This document shows, piece by piece, positions 17,909-63,335 of a stretch of DNA of 64,000 bases. Position numbers and translations under genes: made by a program. The notes under the pieces were generated by a model, which made no database searches, was not told where the DNA came from, and saw only the letters and a list, made by a program, of their open reading frames with translations. How positions within the stretch are numbered: position 1 is the first letter of the stretch; each line of letters begins with the position of its first letter. The DNA lies in contig CAWGRK010000008.1 of NCBI GenBank assembly GCA_963824995.1, positions 62,001-126,000 on the forward strand, written 5' to 3'. The DNA comes from an uncultured Actinomycetes bacterium (GTDB lineage: Bacteria > Actinomycetota > Acidimicrobiia > Spongiisociales > DATADW01).

Positions 17909-18168
17909 TCATCTATTGGCGGCCCGAGTGGCCATCGATTGGATCTCGCTCGTGACACCCGCCGCAAGACCGATCAGCGCGCGGTTTCTCCACAGGCTGC
18001 CAGACGCCTGGGCGCCGCCATGGACGACGTCGCCGCCATCCTCGTTCCCTACAGTGGACGAGCCTGGACGATGCGCACATCGCCATGCACTGGGACCCCG
18101 TGCTCGACGGCACTGCCGACGGCATCATTGTCCAACGTTAGAGATCGAGCAGTTGTCGGGAGGACAGC

Positions 18169-19916
18169 ATGACGCTTCCGAGCGGTGTCGTCACGTTTCT
18201 CTTCACAGACGTCGTCGGTAGCTCCACCAAGTGGGACATCGCTGGTGACGTCATGGAGGGCGCGATACGCCGCCACGATGAGATCATCGAGAGGGCGATC
18301 TCATCCCAATCCGGAGAGGTCGTCAAGAAGACTGGGGATGGGTTCATGGCGGTGTTCGCCAACCCAACCGAGGCGGTCTCGGCGGCGGTCGAGTCACAGC
18401 GAACGCTCGGCGCCGAGGCGTGGGAGGCGGCGATCGCCGACTTCGCCGTACGGATCGGCATCCACACCGGATCGGGGCAGTTGGTGAACGGCGACGACTA
18501 CCTCGGTTCCGCACCCAACAAGGCGGCTCGCATCGAGTCCGCGGGGCATGGGGGCCAGATCCTCGTCTCGGCGGCTACCAGGGAGCTGGTTGACGAGGCC
18601 GCAGACCTGGTTCGATTCCGAGACCTCGGTGACCACTATCTCCGCGGACTGAGCCGTCCGGAGCGCTTGTATCAGGTGACAGGCGATGGATTGATCGACG
18701 ACTTCCCGCCGATCAGGACCGAGTCGAAGCCCGAGCGGCCGTCGATCGCCGTGCTCCCCTTCGAGACCATTGGCGACCTCCAACGGGATGCGTTCGCTGA
18801 CGGGCTGGTCGAGGACTTGATCACCGGACTTTCCCGATGCCGCGATCTGTTCGTGATTGCGCGCAACTCGACGTTCGTATACAAGGACTCCCCGGTGGAC
18901 ATCACCACAGTCGCCGCCAAACTCGGCGTTCGCTACGTCCTCGAGGGGAGCGTGCGATGGTCGGGGGAACGGGCGCGCATCACCGCCCAGCTCATCGACG
19001 GGTCGACGGGAGGCCACCTCTGGGCGGAGAAGTACGACCGCGACGTCGAAGACGTGTTCGGCGTTATCGACGAGATCACCGGTGACATCGTGGCCCAGCT
19101 CAGCGGCTACCACGGCATCCTGGTGTTGACCGAGAAGAAGCGGACCGTCGCCCAAGACCCCGGGTCGCTCGGCGACTACGAGACCTACATCGCGGGCTCG
19201 AGCTCAAGCACCGGTTCATGCCGGAAGCCAATGTCGAATCGAGACAGACCCTCCTTCAGGTCCTCGAGCACCGGCCGGCGTTCGCTCGCGCCCATGTAGC
19301 GCTGGCGTGGACGTGGCTGTTCGAGGTGTTTTGGGGATGGAGCGAAACACCAGAGGTCTCGCTCCGCGAGGCGTGGAAGGCGGCCAAACGCGCCGCCGAG
19401 CTCGACGATCTCGACTCCGAAACGCACTGGGTGCTCGGCGAGCTGCACATGGCACAGGGCGAGTACGAGCGCACCGAAGCCGAGTACAGCCGTGCCATCG
19501 AACTCAATCCGAGCCTCGCCGACGTCCGCGCCAACTGGGCTTCCACCGCCAACCGCCTTGGAATGGCCGAAGAGGGGGTCGAGTCGATGGAGCTGGCGAT
19601 GAAACTCAACCCAAACCCCCCGCCCTGGTACACGTGGTTCCACGGCTCCTCGCTGTACGGCGCCCACCACTACCAAGAGGCAGTAGTTGCGCTCCAAGCC
19701 GCCGCGGTGCACACCGTGGTCAGCAGGTTGTACCTCGCTGCCGCCCTGCACCGGTTGGGGAGAGCTGATGAGGCGGGGCTGGCACTTGCCAAGGCCCAGC
19801 AAGATGTCCCCGAGATCACCATCGCCATGCTCGAGCAGATCGAGGCCTACCGTGACCCGGCGGGACAGGCTCACCTGTCGGAACCACTGCGATCTATGGG
19901 ACTACCCGAGTCCTGA
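18169..19916 (+). CDS. Class III adenylate/guanylate cyclase with TolB-like and TPR domains (frameshift near 19195)
   Basis: TFLFTDVVGS, GDGFMAVF, RIGIHTG, NKAARI; PSIAVLPF, VIARNS, HLWAEKYD; TPRs in a second frame. Confidence 0.85.
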
Positions 19917-20014
19917 GCGTCGACGAGGATCTCAGCGAGGACATCGCGCGTAGATCGAGCGATCTGGGCAGAGTCGTCGAGCTGTGGAGGGCTCTAACCT
20001 GGGGTTTTGCTGTG

Positions 20015-20052
20015 GGGCCTGTAGCTCAATTGGTAGAGCAGGGGACTTTTAA
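20015..20052 (+). repeat. tRNA-Lys(UUU) 5' half, copy 1 (att-like junction)
   Basis: 38/38 identical to 27625-27662; ends at anticodon loop CTTTTAA with no 3' half following. Confidence 0.92.
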
Positions 20053-20182
20053 GCCCGTTGGCGTCACCGCTGAGCTAAACCACGTTCTACCAGGCACTTC
20101 GCGCTCGGGCGACCACCGTCTAGGCGCGAATCCCTTGCTCTTGGCCATGGCCAGAAGTCCCTTGCTCTCTGGACTTGGAATC
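20053..20182 (+). repeat. Conserved non-coding arm, copy 1
   Basis: 48-nt block GCCCGTTGGCGT..CTACCAGGCACTTC, then 24 nt, CGCGAATCCCTTGCTCT, 13 nt, AAGTCCCTTGC. Confidence 0.9.
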
Positions 20183-20481
20183 AACGGAAAATTCACGCCA
20201 TCCAATCGGACCGAATTCCGTGGGTTGGACCTGCGGCCGAGAAGTCGATGCCGCCACCCCTGATGAAACAGGGACTCGAGGCGATTGGGTCGTCACACCC
20301 ACCTCCATCGGTGCGGGACACGGATCGCCAAGGGAGCGCCAGCGGACAACGACTGGAGGGAGCCCGTCAAGGCTAGCCAACCTCGACCGCCGTCCGGCTG
20401 AGTCGGACCCCGAAGAGCCGAAGTCTGCGATCCGAATGTGCTCTGCAAGTCGGAACTCGGAACGGGTCTTAGCATCTAGGA

Positions 20482-23356
20482 GTGCCAGGGCGCGAGGATC
20501 ATGATCTGGCCGGGGTCGGGGTTGCTCGCAGGCGATTGCCTGGCGAGGAGTGGACTCGACGGGAGCGCAGCCTGCTTGTCGGCCGTGAGGTCGAGGTCGC
20601 GGTGCTGGCGGACTTTCTCGTGGCTGGGTCGTCAATGCCCCAAGGGCTTGTGATCGACGGTGAGGCGGGGATCGGGAAGACAACGCTCTTCGACGCAACG
20701 TTGACGAAGGCGAGGGAGCACGGTTTTGCCATCTTCTCGTGCCGTCCGGCGGCTGCCGAGGCGGCCTTTTCGTTTGCCGCCCTCGCCGATCTCTTGAGCC
20801 CGGTGTTGCCAGAGGGGCTAGGGCGGTTGCCGGGGCCGCAGCGTCGTGCGCTTGCGGCGGCTTTGTTGCTGGACGAGCTCGAGGGGTCGGCGCCGGATAA
20901 GAGAGCGATCGCGTTCGCCGTGTATCAGCTTCTCCGTGAGCGTGGCGGCTCACCGCTGCTTATTGCGGTGGATGACGTGCAGTGGCTCGATGCGGCGTCG
21001 GCTTCGGTACTTGCGTTCGCGCTTCGGCGGCTGGCGGCGGCACCGGCGGCGATTCTCGTCGCACGCCGAAGCAGCGGCGGCGAACCAGCTCCGCTCGGGC
21101 TCGATCGCACGCTTCCGAGCGAACAGCTGCGGCGGTTGCGGCTCGGCCCGCTGAGTCTCGGCGCGACTCATCGGTTGCTGCGCGAGCGTGTCGGTGTCTC
21201 ATTTCCTCGACCGACGCTTGTCCAGCTTCATGAGACGTCGGGCGGGAATCCGTTCTATGCGCTCGAGCTTGGGCGCGCGCTCGAGCAGTCGGGTGGGCGC
21301 GCGGGCGCCGGTGAGCGGCTGACGGTTGCGACGTCAATCTCCGGTCTCGTCTCGGCTCGCTTGGCGGCGCTGTCGAAGGACGTTCGCGAGGTGCTCGAGC
21401 CGGTTGCGTTACTCAGCCAGCCGACGGTCTCGATCGTCGAGGCCGTGGCATCAGACACCACGACCGTGCTCGGGCGGCTTCGCACCGCGGAGGCTGCGGC
21501 GGTCGTTGATCTCGATGACGAGCGTGTTCGTTTCAGCCACCCCCTTCTGGCTGCATGCGTCGAGGCGGAGCTCGACCCCCGCCGGCGGCGATCGCTCCAC
21601 CGCCGGCTCGCAGAGCTGGTCGGCGATCCCGAGCAGCGAGCGCGGCATCTTGCCCTGGGTGCGAACGGGCCGTCAGGCGAGGTGGCCAAACAACTGGAGA
21701 GCGCCTCGGCGATTGCGGCGCTGCGTGGGGCTTCAGTGGCCGCAGCCGAGCTGGCGGAGCTCTCGGTCTCGCTCACTCCAGGCGATGCCGGCGAGGAGGT
21801 CCTGCGCCGCCGGCAGCTGCTCGCGGCTGACCATCATTATGCGAGCGGGGATGCGGAACGCCCGCGTGCAATCCTCGAGCGGCTCCTCGACCAGCTCCCC
21901 GCCGGTTCCGAACGCGCGAAGGTGTTGCGGCGGCTCGGCGAGTACTCACCGAACGACCTCGAGAAGTCGGAGCGACTTCTCGAGCAGGCGTTCCTCGAGG
22001 CCGCCTCCGATCCTCGGCTGCAGGCGGAGATCGTCACGCCACGAGTGAGTACGGCGGCTCTTCGCCACGGGCCGGCGGCAGCCGTGCAGCTGGCGCGGAA
22101 CTTGGCTCGAGTCGTTGAAGACAGCGGCGATCCTGTCCTGCTCGCCATGTTTCTGGCGGAACTCAGCTTCTCGGAGCTGCTCTCCACTGAAGGTTTGACG
22201 CCGGGAGTGCTCGAGCGGGCGCTCGAGCTCGAGCAGCATGTGGGGCCGCTTCCGTCACCCACCACACCTACCTTGATCGACGGAGTCCGCCTGATGTTCG
22301 CAGACGAGCACACGTCGGCGCGCGAAACCCTGCAGCGGGCGCACGACGCCGCTGTAGCCCGCGGCTCCGAGTCCGGACGGGACCGTGCCTTGCAATTTCT
22401 GACCGTGCTCGAGTGCCGCGCTGGTGATTGGAGACGCGCCGACGAGTATGCCGAGGCAATTGCTCCAGGCGGGGGAACAGTGGGGCCTCGAGCTTGAGGG
22501 CGCGCCGACGCTGTGGCTCCGGGGCCTGGTTGATGCCTACCTCGGCCGCCTCGACCAAGCTCGAGCCCGCGCCACGGAAGGAGTTGCGCGCTCGCGCGCC
22601 TGGAACGAGCAGGCGTTCCTCGCGCGGAACCTCGCCGTGCTCGGCCTGATCGACCTGTTCACCGGCGACTATCCGGCAGCGGCGGAGACGTTGGGTCCGC
22701 TCGTTCGCCGGAGGCAGGAAAGCGGTGCGGGCGAGCCGAGCGGATTCCCGCCCCGGGAGCTCGCGATCGAGGCGCTGGTTGCGGTCGGCGACTTGGACGA
22801 GGCCCGCGTCCAACTCGAATGGCTGGAGGAAGCCGGGCGCCGCCGGGCGACTCTCTGGCCGCTGGCGATGGGGGCGCGCTGCCGGGGTCTCCTCCAAGCT
22901 GCCGAGGGCGACCTCGAAGCGGCGCTGGCAAGCTGCGAGCAAGCGCTGAAGGTGCATGAGCGGATGCCAGTGCCGTTCGAGCACGCTCGCACACTGCTCA
23001 TCTACGGCACGATCCTTCGTCGCGCCAAGCGGCGACATGCAGCAAGGGAGGCGATCGAGGAGGCGCTGTCGATCTTCGAGTCGCTCCCGGCACCGGTCTG
23101 GGCGGAAAAGGCGCGCGCCGAGCATGCCCGTATCGGTGGCCGTGCGGCGGCGGGCGGCGGATTAACGCCGAGCGAGCGGCGGATCGCGGAGGTTGTTGCG
23201 GAGGGCAAGACAAACAAGGAAGCCGCGGCGGCGCTGTTCATCAGCGTCCATACCGTCGAAGACGCCCTGAAACGGATCTACCGCAAGCTCGGAGTCCGTT
23301 CGCGCACCGAGATGTCGCGCCGGCTCAACGGCGACCCGCAGAGCAAAGACCCCTGA
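20482..23356 (+). CDS. LAL-type AAA ATPase / LuxR regulator (frameshift near 22465; start uncertain)
   Basis: LVGREVE, GEAGIGKTTL, VDDVQWLD, GGNPFYALEL, FSHPL; C-term LTPSERRIA..IYRKLGVRSR. Confidence 0.85.
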
Positions 23357-23368
23357 TTTCAGGTCTTT
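23346..23368. promoter_or_regulatory. Imperfect inverted repeat, candidate LuxR operator
   Basis: AAGACCCCTGA-TT-TCAGGTCTT overlapping the regulator stop, upstream of the 23402 operon. Confidence 0.4.
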
Positions 23369-23401
23369 CGGGGTGACCGCTGCTGGCCCAAGCTTCGAGC
23401 T

Positions 23402-23665
23402 ATGCCCGAATACCTGGTCGAGCTCTACTCAGCCGCCGAACCGGACCCGGCTGCGCTCGCCCGCCTCGGCGACGGATCGGCAGTCCGATACCTGCGCTCG
23501 ATCCTGATCCCGAGCGACGAGACATCGCTCCACCTGTTCGCAGCCGAGTCCGCCGAGCGCGTCGCCGAAGCGTTTGAGCAAGCCGGTCTGACGGCAAACC
23601 GGGTCGTGGCAGCCGTGAACCTGCCACCGCCTACGACCGTAGGCAAGCAAAGGAGGAAGACATGA
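23402..23665 (+). CDS. Small DUF4242-like ferredoxin-fold protein
   Basis: MPEYLVELY..VRYLRSILIPSDETSLHLF.AES pattern. Confidence 0.65.
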   Translation: MPEYLVELYSAAEPDPAALARLGDGSAVRYLRSILIPSDETSLHLFAAESAERVAEAFEQAGLTANRVVAAVNLPPPTTVGKQRRKT

Positions 23666-24105
23666 CCAAAATCAAGGCAATCCTCGGATGGCGCAGGGCC
23701 GTCGTGGCAACGGTCGTAAGCGTCGCGACCGGTGCGGCGCAGGCGTCCGCGTCGAGCGCGCCGATCGTGATCACGTACGAGAAAACGTGCATCGAAGCGG
23801 CCGGTACATGCAGTGGGACCACCGGAAACGGCGACACGCTGACGATGTTGGTTACGGGCGGGCGTCCCACCGGCAAGGCCGCCCAGCTGACTATGACCGA
23901 GTCGATCGTCGGAGAGATCACGTTCGCCGCCGTGCTGAGCGGGCATTTCACCCCTGCGGGGTTCATTGTCATGAACGGCACAGTCACAGGCGGCCCGCAT
24001 GCGGGGGCGCAGGTCCACCAGCGAAGCAACCTGACGGGCGTCAGCAGCGACGGAACCACGACGACTTCGGAGGGAGAGCTCCGGATCATGCCAGCGAGCT
24101 CGTGA
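23662..24105 (+). CDS. Secreted hypothetical protein
   Basis: RBS AAGGAGG; signal peptide ending AQA/ASA; ATGA overlap with upstream gene. Confidence 0.7.
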   Translation: MTKIKAILGWRRAVVATVVSVATGAAQASASSAPIVITYEKTCIEAAGTCSGTTGNGDTLTMLVTGGRPTGKAAQLTMTESIVGEITFAAVLSGHFTPAGFIVMNGTVTGGPHAGAQVHQRSNLTGVSSDGTTTTSEGELRIMPASS

Positions 24106-24679
24106 ACCGGGAGCATCGGCGCCACTCGGCCGTGGCCGGGGTTCGTCTTCGTCATTGAGCATGCCCGCGGGTCGACGGACCCGGTCAAAGACCAAGACAC
24201 CCCGGTCTACCCGACAGACCGGGTCATCGACAGAACCTCCTACACCGACCGATACGGGCTCCTGTTCGAGCGCCTGGCGCCGCGAGCGGCTCTACGACGC
24301 TGCCTGCCTCATTAGTACGGAGCGCAACAAGGGCATCCACAGCGAACCCGCACCCGAGGTTTCGACATACACCTGACGGCAGCAAATCTCTGGCCGAGTT
24401 GCCTCATCAAGGGCTTGCTGTAGGAGCCTGCCATAGGAACGGTTGTCGGGTGCCGGGGGAGTGGCAAAGCGGTCGGAGTGGTGACACGTTCCTGCTGAAC
24501 CTGGGTAGGAGTGCCGGTGCCGTTCGTGCCGGTGGGGATAATCGTGACTATCTGCCAGACGGTTGGGACGGTCGAGCCGGTGTAGAGGCGACAAGTAGCC
24601 GTGGTACTACGAGGTCGTGGACTCGGACGATGTTCGTGATCAGCGCCAACAAAGCCCCTGGTAGAGAAGCTAAAACGCC

Positions 24680-24717
24680 GGGCCTGTAGCTCAATTGGTA
24701 GAGCGGGGGACTTTTAA
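24680..24717 (+). repeat. tRNA-Lys(UUU) 5' half, copy 2
   Basis: 37/38 identical to the intact tRNA 5' half; ends at anticodon loop. Confidence 0.92.
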
Positions 24718-24900
24718 GCCCGTTGGCGTTACCGCTGAGCTAGACCGTGTTCTACCAGGCACTTCGCGATCCGTCGACAACCTTCTAGACGCGAATCCCT
24801 TGCTCTAGCGAAGCGGGCAAAGTCCCTTGCGCTTGGGTGCTTGGAATCCATTGCTCCTGCCCTCTGACCGGAGTCACGGTTGTGCTGGAGGTTGGAACCA
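24718..24900 (+). repeat. Conserved non-coding arm, copy 2
   Basis: Same blocks and spacing as copy 1, plus GTTGTGCTGGAGGTTGGAACC (24879-24899) shared with copy 3. Confidence 0.9.
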
Positions 24901-25011
24901 ACCGAGTGTCGCCGAGGATCAGGAGCTCAGCGATCCGAGAGCCTGAGTAGCTGAACGCCCCCGACCAGGTTCATCTCGGCGCGGCGCTCCTCATGATCCG
25001 TCGGACAGGGA

Positions 25012-25464
25012 TCAATCACCGATGCCGCGTGCCATCAACACTGCGAACGTCGGGACCAGCACGAGGATCGCCAACTGCAGGTTGATCATCCTGCGAGCCG
25101 ACCCAACCACTTGGTCCGACGGCAGGGCCGACGGGTCTTCGTCGAGGGCCTTGCGCCAGCGGGCGTATCGGATCGTGGGCATGATCGACAGCAGCGCGAC
25201 CGCCACGAACGCCGCCATCTTCAACCAGAACGTAGTGCTCTCGAGATAGAACTCGGCGGGCTTGGCGCCCCAGATGACACGCGCCACTCCCGCGATGATC
25301 ACCGCCACTGCGACGACGCCGTATGCGGCGTCGACCCGCCCCAGCCAGCGGATGTCAGCAGCTGCCATTCCCCGCCGCACAAGGGCCCACTCCGCGGCGA
25401 GCACTGCCACGAGGCTGAACACAGCGAGATGATGAGCTATGGCGAGCCAAGCGTCGGTTGTCAT
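25012..25464 (-). CDS. DUF2214 family membrane protein
   Basis: AIAHHL, DAAYG, GAKPAEFY, FWLKM, LSIMPTI, MARGIG; RBS AGGAGG. Confidence 0.88.
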   Translation of the reverse strand: MTTDAWLAIAHHLAVFSLVAVLAAEWALVRRGMAAADIRWLGRVDAAYGVVAVAVIIAGVARVIWGAKPAEFYLESTTFWLKMAAFVAVALLSIMPTIRYARWRKALDEDPSALPSDQVVGSARRMINLQLAILVLVPTFAVLMARGIGD

Positions 25465-26493
25465 TTGCGACCTCCTATTCGTCGACGTCAGGTCGTCCTC
25501 TGGACGCCTACGCCGTTTGGATCAACCCGACGGCAAGCGTGATGAGTGCGGCGGCAATGAGCAGCGCGCCTGTCCGCGTGAGGTTGGTGCCAGCCGAGGG
25601 CCCGTCGGACCGCCGTCCTCAACGGCTGGGAGCTGCGTGGCGGCGAGCCAACACAGGTACACCCCTGGCGCAGAACACCTGACCGTGGGCCACATCTGCA
25701 CATAGGCGACGCCAGCGGAGATGTCCAGCTCGCCGCCGACCCCGATGAGAGCGCGAAACTGCAAGCCGATGAACCCCACTCACGTAACCCCCTTTCCGAG
25801 GCCAGTGTCGCCGTTACAAACTGGGGCCTCTTCCGTGCGAGGGAATGTCAGCACCTCTCACATCCTGGGAAACGCCAAGAAATGACCTCTGACCAGGTAA
25901 ACGCGCCTCACAGCACTTGTGGGCAATACTTGGCCTTCGCATCTTCTCCGTGCGCCCGAGCGCGCCATCCGATTGAGAACGATTCTCAACCTGTAGCTCC
26001 TATATTTTGCGACCTGCGCACACCGCGTCCAGCGAGCAGAGGGGGTCGCACCAGCAGTGGTGCCCGCACCCTCGCTCGCCCCGTACTCTCTCCTACTGCC
26101 TGAATCACGAAGAGCACGCTGACGATGGCGAGACCGGCGGCTGAAACGAAGCAAACGATGGCGCCGACAAGGCCTGGCTCGGCCTCGAAGCCGAATCAGT
26201 GCGGACCTCATAGAACCTCCCACGCCGATCTCGGGTCAACCTACGCCGTCAATATCTCCCGAGCCGTTCTCCGAGGTCCGCCCTTTGTGGTTGGCTGACG
26301 CGGTTGCTAGCGACGCGGCGCACGTGTCCGAACCACAGCGCTCAGGCGTTGATTTGTTAGCTCACCTTGGGCTTCATGGTCGAAGCCTCCAGGCAAGCAG
26401 AGCCATCGCGGCGTTGCGGGCCGCAGATTCCTGCCAACACCTGCCCTGATCGGGGCTGTCGTCACCCCCGAGTCTCATGCTTTTCGACCACTG

Positions 26494-26502
26494 TGCTAAC
26501 TT
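26494..26502 (+). promoter_or_regulatory. Extended -10 promoter candidate upstream of tRNA half copy 3
   Basis: TG-C-TAACTT matches TGnTAnnnT, about 50 nt upstream of 26555. Confidence 0.4.
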
Positions 26503-26554
26503 CGCGGCAAGGATGGCTGGACGCTGAAGCGCCTGGTAGTCGGCCATTTTTTGC

Positions 26555-26591
26555 GGGTCCGTAGCTCAAAGGCAGAGCGGGGGACTTTTAA
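26555..26591 (+). repeat. tRNA-Lys(UUU) 5' half, copy 3 (divergent allele)
   Basis: GGGTCCG TAGCTCAAAGGCAGAGC GGGGGA CTTTTAA; different acceptor strand and D-loop, but still pairs with the resident 3' strand CGGGCCC. Confidence 0.88.
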
Positions 26592-26782
26592 GCCCGTTGG
26601 CGTTACCGCTGAGCTAAACCGCGTTCTACCAGGCACTTCTCGGTCAGTCGACGTCCGTCCATGCGCGAATCCCTTGCTCTACCGATGGGCGTGAAATCCC
26701 TGCGCTTGGGTCTGAGTGTCGACTGCACCGCACTTTGACCGGGGCCGCGTGCCAGCAAGTAGTTGTGCTGAAGGTTGGAACC
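26592..26782 (+). repeat. Conserved non-coding arm, copy 3
   Basis: 46/48 identical to each other copy in the first block; same 24-nt and 13-nt spacers. Confidence 0.9.
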
Positions 26783-26875
26783 GACATGGTCGTCGGTGTC
26801 GTCGGAACGGAGTGAGACCGCAGCTGGTGCTGACTATCGCGTGGCGGTGACCCTTCGTCCCAGCAATACGTTTGT

Positions 26876-27238
26876 GTGACGATGGCCAACAGACGGGTGG
26901 CCGGCGGTGTGCTGGTCGTGTTGATGGCTTCGGCTTGCACATCCACGGCCAGCTCTGACACGGCCACCAGCGTCGAAGAGTCACCGCCGCCTTCTACATC
27001 CGTGACGAGCTCCTCCTCGCCCGAGGCTTCCTCGGATCGACTAAAGGCGGCTACCGGCGAGATTGGCGGTCCAGGCTGTGAGCCTTCGTCCCCTGTGGTT
27101 GCCTGGGGCTACGGCCTCGCCGAGTCGGTGGCAACCTCGGCGGACCTCCACTGTATGGGCGCTCCTCTCCACCCTGTCGCCCCTCAGACCGGAGCGGAGG
27201 TCAAGATCGTGTGGGTCACGCTGCCACGGCGGCTTTAA
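26876..27238 (+). CDS. Putative lipoprotein (possibly truncated)
   Basis: Signal peptide with MASAC lipobox-like site and Ser/Thr-rich linker. Confidence 0.45.
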   Translation: MTMANRRVAGGVLVVLMASACTSTASSDTATSVEESPPPSTSVTSSSSPEASSDRLKAATGEIGGPGCEPSSPVVAWGYGLAESVATSADLHCMGAPLHPVAPQTGAEVKIVWVTLPRRL

Positions 27239-27303
27239 ACGTGAGATATGCTGCGAGGCCTTCAAAGGCCGTCGCTTCGGCGCAGTGAACGTGGAGGGGA
27301 CGA

Positions 27304-27585
27304 ATGGCGATCAAGTCAATCGTCGAAATGAAGGCGAAGCCCGGAAGGCGCGACGAGCTGTTGAGCACGCTGCAGCAGATGTCAGCCGTCGATGCGCCGG
27401 GCTTCATCGCCGCGGAGCACTACCGCAACGTCGAGGATGAAGACACCGTCATCGGTATCTACGACTGGAAGTCGAACGAGGAGCGTGTGGCCTGGTCACA
27501 GTCGCTCGACCCCGGTACGCGGGAACAGTTGCTGGAAGTGCTCGCAACGCCCATGCGCATCGTTCTGGCTGATCACATTGAATAG
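27304..27585 (+). CDS. Antibiotic biosynthesis monooxygenase (ABM) family protein
   Basis: EMKAKPGRRDEL, APGFI, IYDWKS; RBS GGAGGGG. Confidence 0.8.
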   Translation: MAIKSIVEMKAKPGRRDELLSTLQQMSAVDAPGFIAAEHYRNVEDEDTVIGIYDWKSNEERVAWSQSLDPGTREQLLEVLATPMRIVLADHIE

Positions 27586-27624
27586 ACACGACGGCACTGT
27601 CCCTTGTAGATAAGCCGAAACGCC

Positions 27625-27697
27625 GGGCCTGTAGCTCAATTGGTAGAGCAGGGGACTTTTAATCCCAAGGTCGTGGGTTCGATTCCCACCGGGCCCA
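27625..27697 (+). tRNA. tRNA-Lys(UUU)
   Basis: Full cloverleaf: GGGCCTG/CGGGCCC acceptor, anticodon loop CTTTTAA, T-arm GTGGG-TTCGATT-CCCAC; CCA not encoded. Confidence 0.97.
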
Positions 27698-27908
27698 CTC
27701 CCCTGACCAGGCACTTCTACCCGATGCAACCACTCCGGCATCGCCTCCGAGGCGTCACGGGCGACACTCTCGACGACAAAGACAGTCTCGCCACCTGGAT
27801 TGGGCGATCTGGCGTCGCCGCTGCTGGCGTAGCGAATGGTGCGATCCGTCAGGCGATCACCGGATTGCGACGACGCACCGCAGGCAGAACTGGTGCATCA
27901 TGTGCCAC

Positions 27909-28292
27909 ATGCAGCGGGTAGTCGGCATCGGCGGGATTTTCTTCAAAGCGGCGGATCCAGCGACGCTCAGCCAGTGGTACGCCACCCACCTTGGGATCGA
28001 TCCGCCACCACAGTCGTACGAAGAGCCGGTCTGGTTTCAGGCAGGTGGCCCCACCGTCTTCGCACCGTTCGCGTCCGAGGATGGCGACAACCCCTATCTG
28101 GGGCCCACCGGCTGGGGCATCAACTTCCGCGTGTCCGACCTCGATGCAGTGGTCGCCCAGCTTCGATCGGCGCAGGTCGAGGTCGAGGTCGACGGCGAGG
28201 TGTACCCGAACGGGCGCTTCGCCCAGTTGCACGACCCCGAGGGCAACGCAATCCAGCTCTGGGAACCCAGCGACCCCGAGCCGTCAGCCTGA
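27909..28292 (+). CDS. VOC/glyoxalase family protein
   Basis: RVVGIGGIFFKA, INFRVSDLD, GRFA..DPEGNAIQLWEP. Confidence 0.88.
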   Translation: MQRVVGIGGIFFKAADPATLSQWYATHLGIDPPPQSYEEPVWFQAGGPTVFAPFASEDGDNPYLGPTGWGINFRVSDLDAVVAQLRSAQVEVEVDGEVYPNGRFAQLHDPEGNAIQLWEPSDPEPSA

Positions 28293-28311
28293 GCTACGGG
28301 TTGGTGGTGCA

Positions 28312-29449
28312 TTGGCAGCCGGCGATAACGACAGGAATCGCGACATCGCCGAGCCGTACCCGCCGATCGAGCCATACGACCAAGGGATGCTCGACGTGGG
28401 CGACGGCAACCTCGTCTACTGGGAAACCTCGGCCAACCCGGAGGGCAAGCCGGCGCTGGTCGTCCACGGTGGCCCTGGCTCCGGCTCCGGGCCGGGAAAT
28501 CGCCGCTTCTTCGATCCCAAGCGCTACCGGGTAATCCTCTTCGACCAGCGTGGGTGCGGGGGCAGCACACCGCACGCCAGCGACCCGGCCACCGACATGG
28601 GCGTGAACACCACCGAGCACCTCCTCGCCGACATGGAGCGGCTGCGTCAGCACCTGGGGATCGAGCGGTGGCTGCTGTACGGAGGATCATGGGGATCGAC
28701 GCTGATCCTCGCCTACGCCGAGCGCCACCCCGAAAAGGTGTCGGAGATCGTCATTCCTGGGGTCACCATGACCCGCCGGTCCGAAGTCGACTGGCTCTAT
28801 CGGGGTGTCGGCCGCTTTTTCCCCGAGGCGTGGGAGCGGTTTCGGGCCGGCCTGCCGGAGGCCGACCGCGGTGGCGACCTCGTCGCCGCCTACGCCCGGC
28901 TGATGGAGGCACCAGACGCTGATGTTCGGGGCAAGGCGGTGGCCGACTGGCTCGAGTGGGAAGACGCCGTCATCTCGCACGAACCGCACGGGACACCGAA
29001 CGCCTATAGCTCCCGTCCCCTTGCGGCGCAGATCGCCTTCGTCCGGATCTGCGCCTGGTATTTCTCCCACGGCGCCTGGCTGGAGGAGGGGGCGCTGCTG
29101 CGCGAGGCGGGCCGCCTCGCCGGCATCCCGGGCGTTCTGATCCATGGTCGCCTGGATATGGGATCCCCGGTTGGTACGGCCTGGGAGCTGGCCCGCGCCT
29201 GGCCGGACGCGCGGGCTGGTGGTGGTCGACGACTCCGGGCACACCGGAAGCGAGACGATGAGGACCGCGATCCTCGACGCCCTCAACGAGTTCGCCCGAC
29301 GGCTGACTCAAGTTCCAAGTCACCACGCCGGGCCCCTCGCTGGCAGACGGAAGCGACGGAGAGAGGGAGCTGGTCACCGCACCGTTTCCCTCTGTCGCGT
29401 CCGTACCGACCCTCCCGCTGAGCGGTGGAGGTCCGAAGACTCACCGTAA
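28312..29449 (+). CDS. pip: Prolyl aminopeptidase (frameshift near 29212; ends approximate)
   Basis: PPIEPY, HGGPG, FDQRGCG, GGSWG nucleophile, HGRLD; catalytic His (SGH) in a second frame. Confidence 0.85.
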
Positions 29450-38318: not shown

Positions 38319-38552
38319 GCTTCACTCCCCAAGGCTGGGGATTACCGACGCCGCAGGCGTTGGGGGAGAGGAACGGTTCACTCCCAAGGGTGCGAAAGCC
38401 GCGGGTCGAGCACCGTTGGGAGCTCGGCAGCCCCCCTACCCGCTGCTGACGCAGCGGGGCCTTTCCCCCTGTGGGAGCACAGAAGGGTCGAGGCTGTCGG
38501 TTCTTCAATACCACCGACCACCTCCCGTCCGCCGTCCGCCGTCCGCCGTCCA
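38319..38552 (-). repeat. Intergenic palindromic repeat family, copy 2
   Basis: Reverse complement of the 60265-60492 unit; GAACGGTTCACTCCCAA..GGGTCGAGCACCGTTGGGAG shared with 56108-56160; CCGTCCG tandem at the end. Confidence 0.8.
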
Positions 38553-56041: not shown

Positions 56042-56206
56042 CTTCACAACGAATCTCTCCCCCCGGCGGGGGGAGTACCCGACGCCGCAAAGGCGTCGGG
56101 GAAGGGGGGAACGGTTCACTCCCAAAGGTGCGAAAGGCGTGGGTCGAGCACCGTTGGGAGTTCGCCACGGGGGGACGGAAACTTGCTGCCGTCCGCCGTC
56201 CGCCCC
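56042..56206 (-). repeat. Intergenic palindromic repeat family, copy 3 (partial)
   Basis: CCCCCCGGCGGGGGG and CCGACGCC-GCAAA-GGCGTCGG hairpins; about 53-nt block shared with 38370-38423. Confidence 0.8.
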
Positions 56207-60264: not shown

Positions 60265-60492
60265 GGGAGTGAACCAGCCCCCGTCCCCCGACACCGCCGG
60301 GGGGAGCGAAAGGTCTCTCCGTCCCCCCGCGGAGGGAAAAGGGCCCCGCTGCGGAGCAGCGGGTAGGGGGCTGCCTACTTCCAACAGTGCTCGACTCGCG
60401 GCTTTCACACCTTTCGGAGTGAGCCAGTCCCGTCCCCCGACGCCTCCGGCGTGGGTACTTCGCCCGCCGGGGGGAAGGAATCGGACGGCGGG
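60265..60492 (+). repeat. Intergenic palindromic repeat family, copy 4
   Basis: 30-nt GGGCCCCGCTGCGGAGCAGCGGGTAGGGGG (60341-60370) identical to 63199-63228. Confidence 0.85.
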
Positions 60493-63169: not shown

Positions 63170-63335
63170 AACCCTCACCGTCCCCCCGCACGGGGGAAGG
63201 GCCCCGCTGCGGAGCAGCGGGTAGGGGGGCTGGCGAATTCCCAACGGTGCTTGCTCTGCGGCTGTCGCACCTCTGGGAGTGAACCACTCCCCCCTCCCCC
63301 GACGCCGACGGGTACTCCCCCGCCGGAGGGAGTGG
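63170..63335 (+). repeat. Intergenic palindromic repeat family, copy 5
   Basis: Aligns with 60319-60480. Confidence 0.85.

Follow-up and report, generated by a model that had tools for sequence, protein, structure and literature searches.

The DNA analysed here, a 64,000-nucleotide stretch of contig CAWGRK010000008.1 (assembly GCA_963824995.1) from an uncultured bacterium of the Acidimicrobiia and hereafter called the window, carries three 5' halves of a tRNA-Lys(UUU) gene ahead of one intact tRNA-Lys. We regard this arrangement as probably a tandem-accretion array of integrase-less units that resemble cis-mobilizable elements (CIMEs), and as the mirror image of the classic arrays at 3' gene ends. 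The three islands appear to be leftovers of a widespread and apparently undescribed family of mobile elements that replaces the front half of its tRNA target. The features of the array, from left to right, are as follows (ORF, open reading frame; attL and attR, left and right attachment sites).

20015–20052, plus strand: tRNA-Lys 5' half, copy 1; outermost junction, attL-like; matches the intact tRNA at 38/38 positions and stops at loop position 38.
20053–20182, plus strand: left arm (P') of unit 1; family motif at 20065–20076, 10.6 bits at the family offset.
20087–20094, 20131 and 20158, plus strand: boxes in the left arm of unit 1, CTACCAGG at the first place and TCCCTTGC, repeated, at the other two.
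20482–23356, plus strand: cargo of unit 1, LAL-type regulator (AAA_16, TPR, GerE) in ORFs 20482–22497 and 22424–23356.
23402–24105, plus strand: cargo of unit 1, SCO4226-like protein (below the Pfam cut-off) and a 147-aa protein without a family.
24644–24679, plus strand: right end (P arm) of unit 1, truncated to the CCTGGTAG box and the tRNA-proximal stretch.
24680–24717, plus strand: tRNA-Lys 5' half, copy 2; internal junction.
24718–24902, plus strand: left arm (P') of unit 2; family motif at 24730–24741, 13.1 bits.
25012–25464, minus strand: cargo of unit 2, DUF2214 membrane protein (E 2e-46).
26469–26554, plus strand: right end (P arm) of unit 2, full-length and diverged, with the CCTGGTAG box.
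26555–26591, plus strand: tRNA-Lys 5' half, copy 3; variant D loop.
26592–26785, plus strand: left arm (P') of unit 3; family motif at 26604–26615, 13.1 bits.
26800–26865, plus strand: decayed gene start in unit 3; the gene is intact in the congener G005.
26876–27585, plus strand: cargo of unit 3, a 120-aa ORF with a lipoprotein-like start and an ABM protein (27304–27585).
27601–27624, plus strand: right end (P arm) of unit 3, cut to ~24 nt; longer in sequencing run X1.
27625–27698, plus strand: intact tRNA-Lys(UUU), attR (ARAGORN).
27704–27717, plus strand: fourth ACCAGGCACTT box of the arm, just 3' of the tRNA.

In all three halves, the match to the intact gene ends at the final base of the anticodon loop. 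Copy 2 matches the intact tRNA at 37/38 positions, and copy 3 carries several changes and a 1-nt deletion in the D loop. Each half is fused to the same arm, whose first 48 nt agree pairwise at 44, 46 and 46 of 48 positions; ~130 nt are common to all three copies and ~190 nt are shared between copies 2 and 3, more than the preliminary description had given. The loop-to-loop distances are 4665, 1874 and 1071. These values agree with a preliminary description made from the sequence alone, with the end of the tRNA now placed at 27698. The arm repeat is far above chance level, because arm-to-arm BLASTN matches within the 2.9-Mb genome reach E values of 1e-27 to 1e-34; no further strong match to the arm was found there by BLASTN. 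Conserved right ends are also present, 5' of each next tRNA half or of the intact tRNA. The latter is the only intact tRNA-Lys(UUU) found in this genome (66% G+C, 85% complete).

The units are multigenic and of mixed orientation, with the DUF2214 gene of unit 2 reversed. Pfam bore out most of the cargo labels proposed earlier, namely a LAL-type AAA_16 and GerE regulator in unit 1, DUF2214 in unit 2 and ABM in unit 3, and returned no match for the lipoprotein-like ORF of unit 3. The split of the LAL regulator into two ORFs may be a read error, as the indels of the homologous copy in the sister species G004 sit at other places. The earlier observation that the window lacks a recombinase was upheld: the profile of the cognate integrase described below reached a best independent E value of only 0.28 against 1646 six-frame segments of the window. 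Likewise, searches with that integrase (P0001), with TrwC and with the integrase-family profile detected no remnant anywhere in the window, and together with Pfam they revealed no integrase, relaxase or conjugation genes in the three units. A serine recombinase was not found in the genome.

To compare the assembly with independent data, we used contigs from 4 of the 24 listed runs; none of the runs contained as much as half of the words of the window, most pieces came from other organisms, and the cover was partial, so that only the covered parts are informative. A contig of run X1 covers the copy-2 arm from 24713 to 24968 with 0 differences, and another, at 26111–26615, spans the copy-3 junction. 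Since these contigs come from an independent run and two of the junctions recur in another species, the array is not a misassembly, a doubt raised in the preliminary description. X1 also contains near-identical contigs over parts of units 2 and 3. In one X1 contig (depth 9), the end of unit 3 is followed by 17 other letters, a right arm longer than in the window, a 5' half and then ~25 nt of left arm; unit 3 is therefore not always beside the tRNA. The joint fits a circle and an extra unit behind unit 3 equally well.

The cognate integrase was found in G004. Among seven genomes of the host's family (this genome, 5 congeners and 1 other member), arm DNA is present in only two, this genome and G004. 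In G004, a different unit of 13.8 kb lies between unit 1 and the intact tRNA-Lys and is bounded by the same junctions. This element encodes P0001, a 302-aa, Xer-like tyrosine recombinase with an intact reading frame, which starts ~95 nt upstream of the tRNA and points away from it; a recombinase gene beside the same arm, expected in the preliminary description, thus exists in a relative. P0001 consists of a SAM-like domain from residue 13 and a catalytic domain at 117–282, leaving no room for an N-terminal arm-binding domain. Residues R152, K176, H242, R245, W268 and Y277, which we take to be the usual tyrosine-recombinase catalytic set, are invariant in 16 relatives. P0001 scored 113–115 bits against XerC/XerD curated cut-offs of 330–335, and its profile matched XerA/XerD (E 1e-34) better than PDB chain 5vfz Gp33 (E 3e-14), presumably the Brujita integrase. 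The G004 element also encodes a TrwC relaxase whose frame is broken by frameshifts, which may be read errors, and none of its 28 ORFs had a phage or repressor match in Pfam. In the window's own genome, which is 85% complete, a profile search found no family integrase; the only matches were two recombinases on contig C6, 29–30% identical to P0001. At the internal junction of G004 (L024:18280-18360), the 5' half shows a ~24-nt partial tandem duplication, either real or an assembly slip.

The preliminary description called the array integron-like. A true integron-type array, with folded single-strand attC-like sites and an integron integrase, deserves practically no credence, and the same applies to an assembly artefact. 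There are inverted repeats in the junctions, and copy 3 folds better than shuffled sequences (z -1.9 and -3.0), but copies 1 and 2 fold no better than shuffles (z +1.0 to -1.2), and we rejected the hairpin idea on this ground. Moreover, P0001, at 21 bits, falls short of the integron-integrase cut-off of 265, no integron integrase beside an attI site is present in the window, and the units are multigenic and inserted in either orientation. Against an artefact stands the recurrence of the junctions in another species and another run.

P0001 belongs to a large family. A scan of GTDB genomes confirmed at least 569 relatives, and 18 of the 401 genomes of the order contain relatives at E 1e-30 or better. 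We surveyed the loci of the best 80 of these at least 569 relatives, one being the query's own locus; their labels are mostly Acidimicrobiia, other Actinomycetota and Chloroflexota. Six of the 80 loci lie at a contig edge, 3 lack a nearby tRNA gene, and 71 (of 74 assessable) have a tRNA gene no more than 250 nt from the integrase start. With the orientation of integrase and tRNA taken as a proxy for insertion polarity, 56 of the 71 loci are divergent (5'-replacing) and 15 codirectional, and their targets span 12 amino-acid types. Where the far end is in reach, divergent loci end in a 5' fragment and codirectional loci in a 3' one; L167, with an inverted fragment, and L197, whose 3' fragments have diverged, are odd cases.

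The attachment sites share a common anatomy. In 24 elements with both ends, which gave 26 fragments, the identity of the 5' fragments ends at position 38 in 14 of 26 and at 39–42 in 9 of 26; the other 3 were mis-registered and dropped. The 23 arms that remain, all from other genomes, share a motif with the consensus CGCTGTGCT, which in 20 of them starts 15–16 nt past the loop. The profile built from these 23 arms, with the window left out, scores 10.6–13.1 bits on the window arms at an offset of 15 in all three, against a background of 1.5 hits per kb at 6.5 bits or more. Related motifs occur ~65–85 nt into the left arm and, as a pair, 60–85 nt upstream of the tRNA; in unit 2 this pair lies at 26469–26497 with the family spacing (12.3 bits at 26486–26497). 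In two of the 7 3'-type fragments, the motif is strong on the opposite strand, 24 nt ahead of the fragment, at the D-stem position. One attP (element attachment site) design may thus be used in either orientation about the loop. The window arm mirrors the tRNA sequence TAGCTCA exactly, which would suit an integrase that recognises the D stem of the tRNA as the arm motif in mirror image; as the family profile scores only 1.1 bits on the tRNA-Lys D arm, this notion is no more than a lead. A junction-pattern search gave 0 matches in JGI metagenomes and 5 in viral contigs, none of them a tRNA-half junction by eye, and a short loop-plus-motif pattern matched 21 of the 401 genomes, about as many as the control. 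Together, the G004 element, the 71-locus survey and the ends of the 5' fragments support the earlier proposals of a crossover in the anticodon loop, an attP made of the 5' half plus the arm, and a tRNA rebuilt from its 5' side. Serial integration beside the intact tRNA, also proposed there, is supported by the G004 junctions and the family loci.

Homologous sites in congeners point to how the integrase was lost. In G005, the tRNA-Lys site holds 6 kb of other cargo, then about the first 25 codons of P0001, a right arm and the intact tRNA, and the left half is absent. The window's own genome has, outside the window, another integrase-free unit built on the same plan, at tRNA-Arg(CCT) (G000:C2:40234-43593, L201:2235-5594): a 38/38 5' half is joined to an arm that carries the same motifs, followed by 3.3 kb of cargo and a complete right arm; a profile search of this unit found no integrase match. 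Its ORFs read as cyclase-like and membrane-protein genes, labels given by reading, and the cyclase-like gene sits elsewhere in G001 and G002 (92–95%). The tRNA-Arg site is empty in G001 and holds other inserts behind the same right arm in G002, G004 and G005; G002 and G004 retain N-terminal integrase fragments there (E about 1e-13), and the left half-site is lost in G002 and G005. An integrase fragment also lies at an internal junction of L189. Tandems occur in 2 of the 24 both-ended 5'-type elements, with outer units (1.8 and 11.9 kb) that lack a profile match, and in two 3'-type cases, one with a 1.0-kb integrase-free unit and one with an integrase fragment. A 1.8-kb unit in L071 is integrase-free with a cysteine-synthase-like gene, and its right end stops almost at the integrase start.

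Since integrase stumps of different lengths persist at homologous ends in three congeners, the integrase-free units appear to arise by deletion, in a series as expected of CIMEs. The earlier question of decayed integrase genes is thereby answered in part: none lies within the window intervals, and stumps occur at the homologous ends in congeners. The window right arms are full in unit 2 and reduced to 24–40 nt in units 1 and 3, and all left arms are intact. The right end of unit 1 aligns over ~35–40 nt with that of the G004 integrase element, and its distal motif is absent. Over 67 nt, the stretch at 26800–26865 is 82% identical to L026:15485-15551, where a 441-aa ORF begins; in the window it runs into a stop, a sign of erosion within unit 3.

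The array order and content at tRNA-Lys vary among congeners and in run X1; the preliminary description had anticipated a variable number and content of units in relatives, and this is supported. Unit 1 is 97.2% identical to its G004 copy over 4814 nt. Third-position divergence from G004 is ~2% in unit 1, 10% in the pair of genes lying 3' of the tRNA and 22–29% in four backbone genes; unit 1 has therefore been shared recently, already free of an integrase. Of 400 1-kb pieces sampled from G004, 283 aligned to this genome with a median identity of 85.8%; 38 of these were at least 95% identical and 18 at least 96.5%, and they come in whole tracts. As an argument for site-specific transfer, the 97% identity of unit 1 loses weight in view of these other tracts of at least 95% that both species share. 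On L254, L257 and L248 of G004, whole tracts are 95–100% identical to this genome, against a species median of 86%; these tracts reflect either recent exchange or a binning mix-up.

These data bear on the view of the preliminary description, that small non-autonomous circles were integrated in trans. In this account, the units are dedicated mini-elements, single circles moved in trans by a visiting integrase and forming an integron-like cassette pool at tRNA genes, which we consider unlikely. Complete ends are kept by unit 2, the tRNA-Arg unit and the 1.8-kb L071 unit, the closeness of unit 1 to its G004 copy set beside the four backbone genes would fit recent movement, the X1 joint described above fits a circle, and arm-less integrases of the Brujita class reportedly act without directionality (bioRxiv 10.64898/2026.10.29.762952, in the part cited). 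However, unit 1 is outermost in both genomes and may have travelled by homologous recombination or in cis, because both species share other recent tracts, and the X1 joint is a single contig that a further unit behind unit 3 explains equally. The distal right-arm motif is absent from units 1 and 3, a search of this genome (85% complete) gave no family integrase, and congeners have integrase stumps where the window units have nothing, their variable length suggesting random deletion. In its widest form, which we likewise consider unlikely, an arm-less 5'-half-replacing family would keep a pool of 1–5 kb integrase-free mini-elements, excised and re-inserted singly in trans, and several tRNA genes of soil-type actinobacteria and Chloroflexota would be integron-like cassette platforms lacking a resident integrase. 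Derivation by deletion explains the units better and makes them CIMEs, a described class.

We consider it still less probable, and indeed improbable, that the units are dead relics, three immobile scars spread only by descent or homologous recombination with arms conserved merely through recency. The truncated right arms, the decayed gene start in unit 3, the left half-sites lost in G005 (tRNA-Lys) and in G002 and G005 (tRNA-Arg), and the mosaic sharing between species would suit such relics. By contrast, each of the left arms can still be recognised, as can the right end next to the tRNA, and composite excision needs just these; moreover, unit 1 of G004 directly adjoins an element with an intact integrase frame.

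Our model of CIME-like accretion draws on the site anatomy, the congener's cognate integrase, the family geometry, the erosion series and the variable content, all read from sequence. The parent would be an integrative element with a small arm-less tyrosine integrase that carries out recombination in the tRNA-Lys anticodon loop, and the attP of this element would comprise the right arm, a promoter, the tRNA 5' half, the loop and the left arm. Strand exchange across the 7-nt loop would follow established tyrosine-integrase biology. Upon insertion, the 5' half of the host would end up fused to the left arm, and the tRNA would be rebuilt at the right end with a promoter supplied by the element, by analogy with pTN3-like integrases. 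The stretch at 27601–27624 occupies the place of the tRNA promoter and may serve as one; a sigma-70 scan of 19900–27800 gave no promoter match. Internal deletion would later remove the relaxase and the integrase, leaving the cargo and varying amounts of the two ends. A later element would enter the rebuilt tRNA, as in the model for tycheposons, and push the older unit outward, so that three rounds would give the array and its presumed order of insertions in time. Old units may occasionally be mobilised in cis with a resident intact element; mobility after integrase loss is possible, mainly in cis.

Several observations weigh against this model. The three window units have no integrase stump, and their descent by deletion is judged from homologous ends elsewhere. 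Their left arms are 92–96% identical over 48 nt with intact motifs beside unrelated cargo, which exceeds the expectation of passive decay. The tRNA-proximal unit is integrase-free and has the shortest right arm, contrary to the usual gradient.

Comparison with known systems, as far as the cited parts of each source describe them, places the array within a known kind of structure, with the integrase family, the strong 5' bias and the shared attachment-site anatomy as the new elements. CIMEs lack recombination and transfer genes, keep their att sites and move only with a neighbour (PMC7563491, PMC5704250); they measure 1.2–13 kb, and the most decayed units lie farthest from the target gene (PMC7563491). 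The window units resemble Streptococcus CIMEs and the tandem accretion of integrative and conjugative elements and integrative mobilizable elements (IMEs), in which kb-size units free of integrase and relaxase keep their att sites and stack with intact elements, including at tRNA-Lys (PMC7563491, PMC5704250). Both attL and attR are kept here, with the right ends truncated in units 1 and 3, and a tandem with an intact element at the same site is present in G004 (unit 1 plus the integrase/TrwC element) and not in the window. Unlike the described CIME arrays, that of the window has no intact member, and unlike the Streptococcus arrays, which sit at 3' gene ends, the 5' half is replaced and the integrase is small and arm-less. 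The G004 relaxase is of the TrwC/MobF type, and the 2017 review, in its cited part, lists no MobF among canonical IMEs (PMC5704250).

The units also resemble the Islander islands at anticodon site A with a 5' fragment, which have a tyrosine integrase, a crossover in the loop and a 5' fragment upstream of the restored tRNA (PMC4383910). The 5'-fragment class is a minority there, at 159 of 3919 islands, whereas the P0001 family shows this polarity in 56 of 71 loci (among the best 80). Islander islands have their own integrase per unit, as does the G004 element; the window units have none. As Islander rejects units without an integrase or shorter than 2 kb (PMC4383910), it would skip this array. 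Prochlorococcus tycheposon arrays (bioRxiv 10.1101/2020.12.28.424599) and Dehalococcoides ssrA islands (PMC3146451) share serial insertion at one tRNA/tmRNA gene, partial-gene separators, newest-proximal order and integrase-free or degenerate members; both involve other hosts and other integrases. Brujita-class phage integrases (bioRxiv 10.64898/2026.10.29.762952) likewise lack an arm-binding domain and target tRNA genes, but no phage genes or repressor ORF across attP were seen here. Archaeal pTN3-like integrases (PMC8371274) use the tRNA 5' half with an element-supplied promoter, a feature that we infer here; unlike theirs, the integrase gene here appears to stay in one piece upon integration. 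We found no published description of the P0001 family in a search that did not cover supplements, and TIGER/Islander tables may already hold members.

Further features were noted around the array. The ACCAGGCACTT box occurs 4 times in the genome, always at the tRNA-Lys locus, and its copy 3' of the tRNA is present in G005 and not in G004. Behind it, glyoxalase and peptidase-like genes (27698–29400) are 94–95% identical to G004/G005, closer than the backbone; box and genes are possibly a relic 3'-type element. At the same place, G002 has a 0.85-kb islet ended by a tRNA 3' fragment. Left of copy 1 (17911–20014) lies a cyclase-TPR gene, missing at this place in G002 and G005, which may be an older unit with its left half-site lost; the frameshift of this gene at 19190 is probably a read error, since contigs of three runs do not show it. 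In unit 2, a 120-nt non-coding stretch at 26043–26174 has 78–81% copies on contig C7 and in four congeners. At 24890–24915 and 26775–26805, and also before the G005 cargo gene, GGAACC is followed 16–17 nt on by a CGTC-like word, a pair that resembles the consensus of an extracytoplasmic function (ECF) sigma promoter. Several small conventional 3'-fragment islets lie on contigs C1, C10, C13, C16 and C17 of this genome, among them 1.1 kb at tRNA-Ala(TGC), 0.3 kb and more at tRNA-Arg(ACG), 0.7 kb at tRNA-Met, 3 kb with a recombinase fragment at tRNA-Ala(CGC), and two fragments behind tRNA-Sec. Dispersed 60–90 nt repeats in both orientations (38362–38447, 56050–56205, 60334–60483 and 63192–63330) are unrelated to the array.

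Overall, this analysis names an enzyme and a site anatomy behind a rare polarity of tRNA-gene insertion, and it reveals cargo piling up before tRNA genes in units that integrase-requiring island finders skip. With at least 569 relatives, targets among at least 12 tRNA types, an enzyme of 300 aa and a single arm design that seems to serve both orientations, target switching and polarity become directly testable, and the compact integrases of the P0001 family are on offer as cloning tools.

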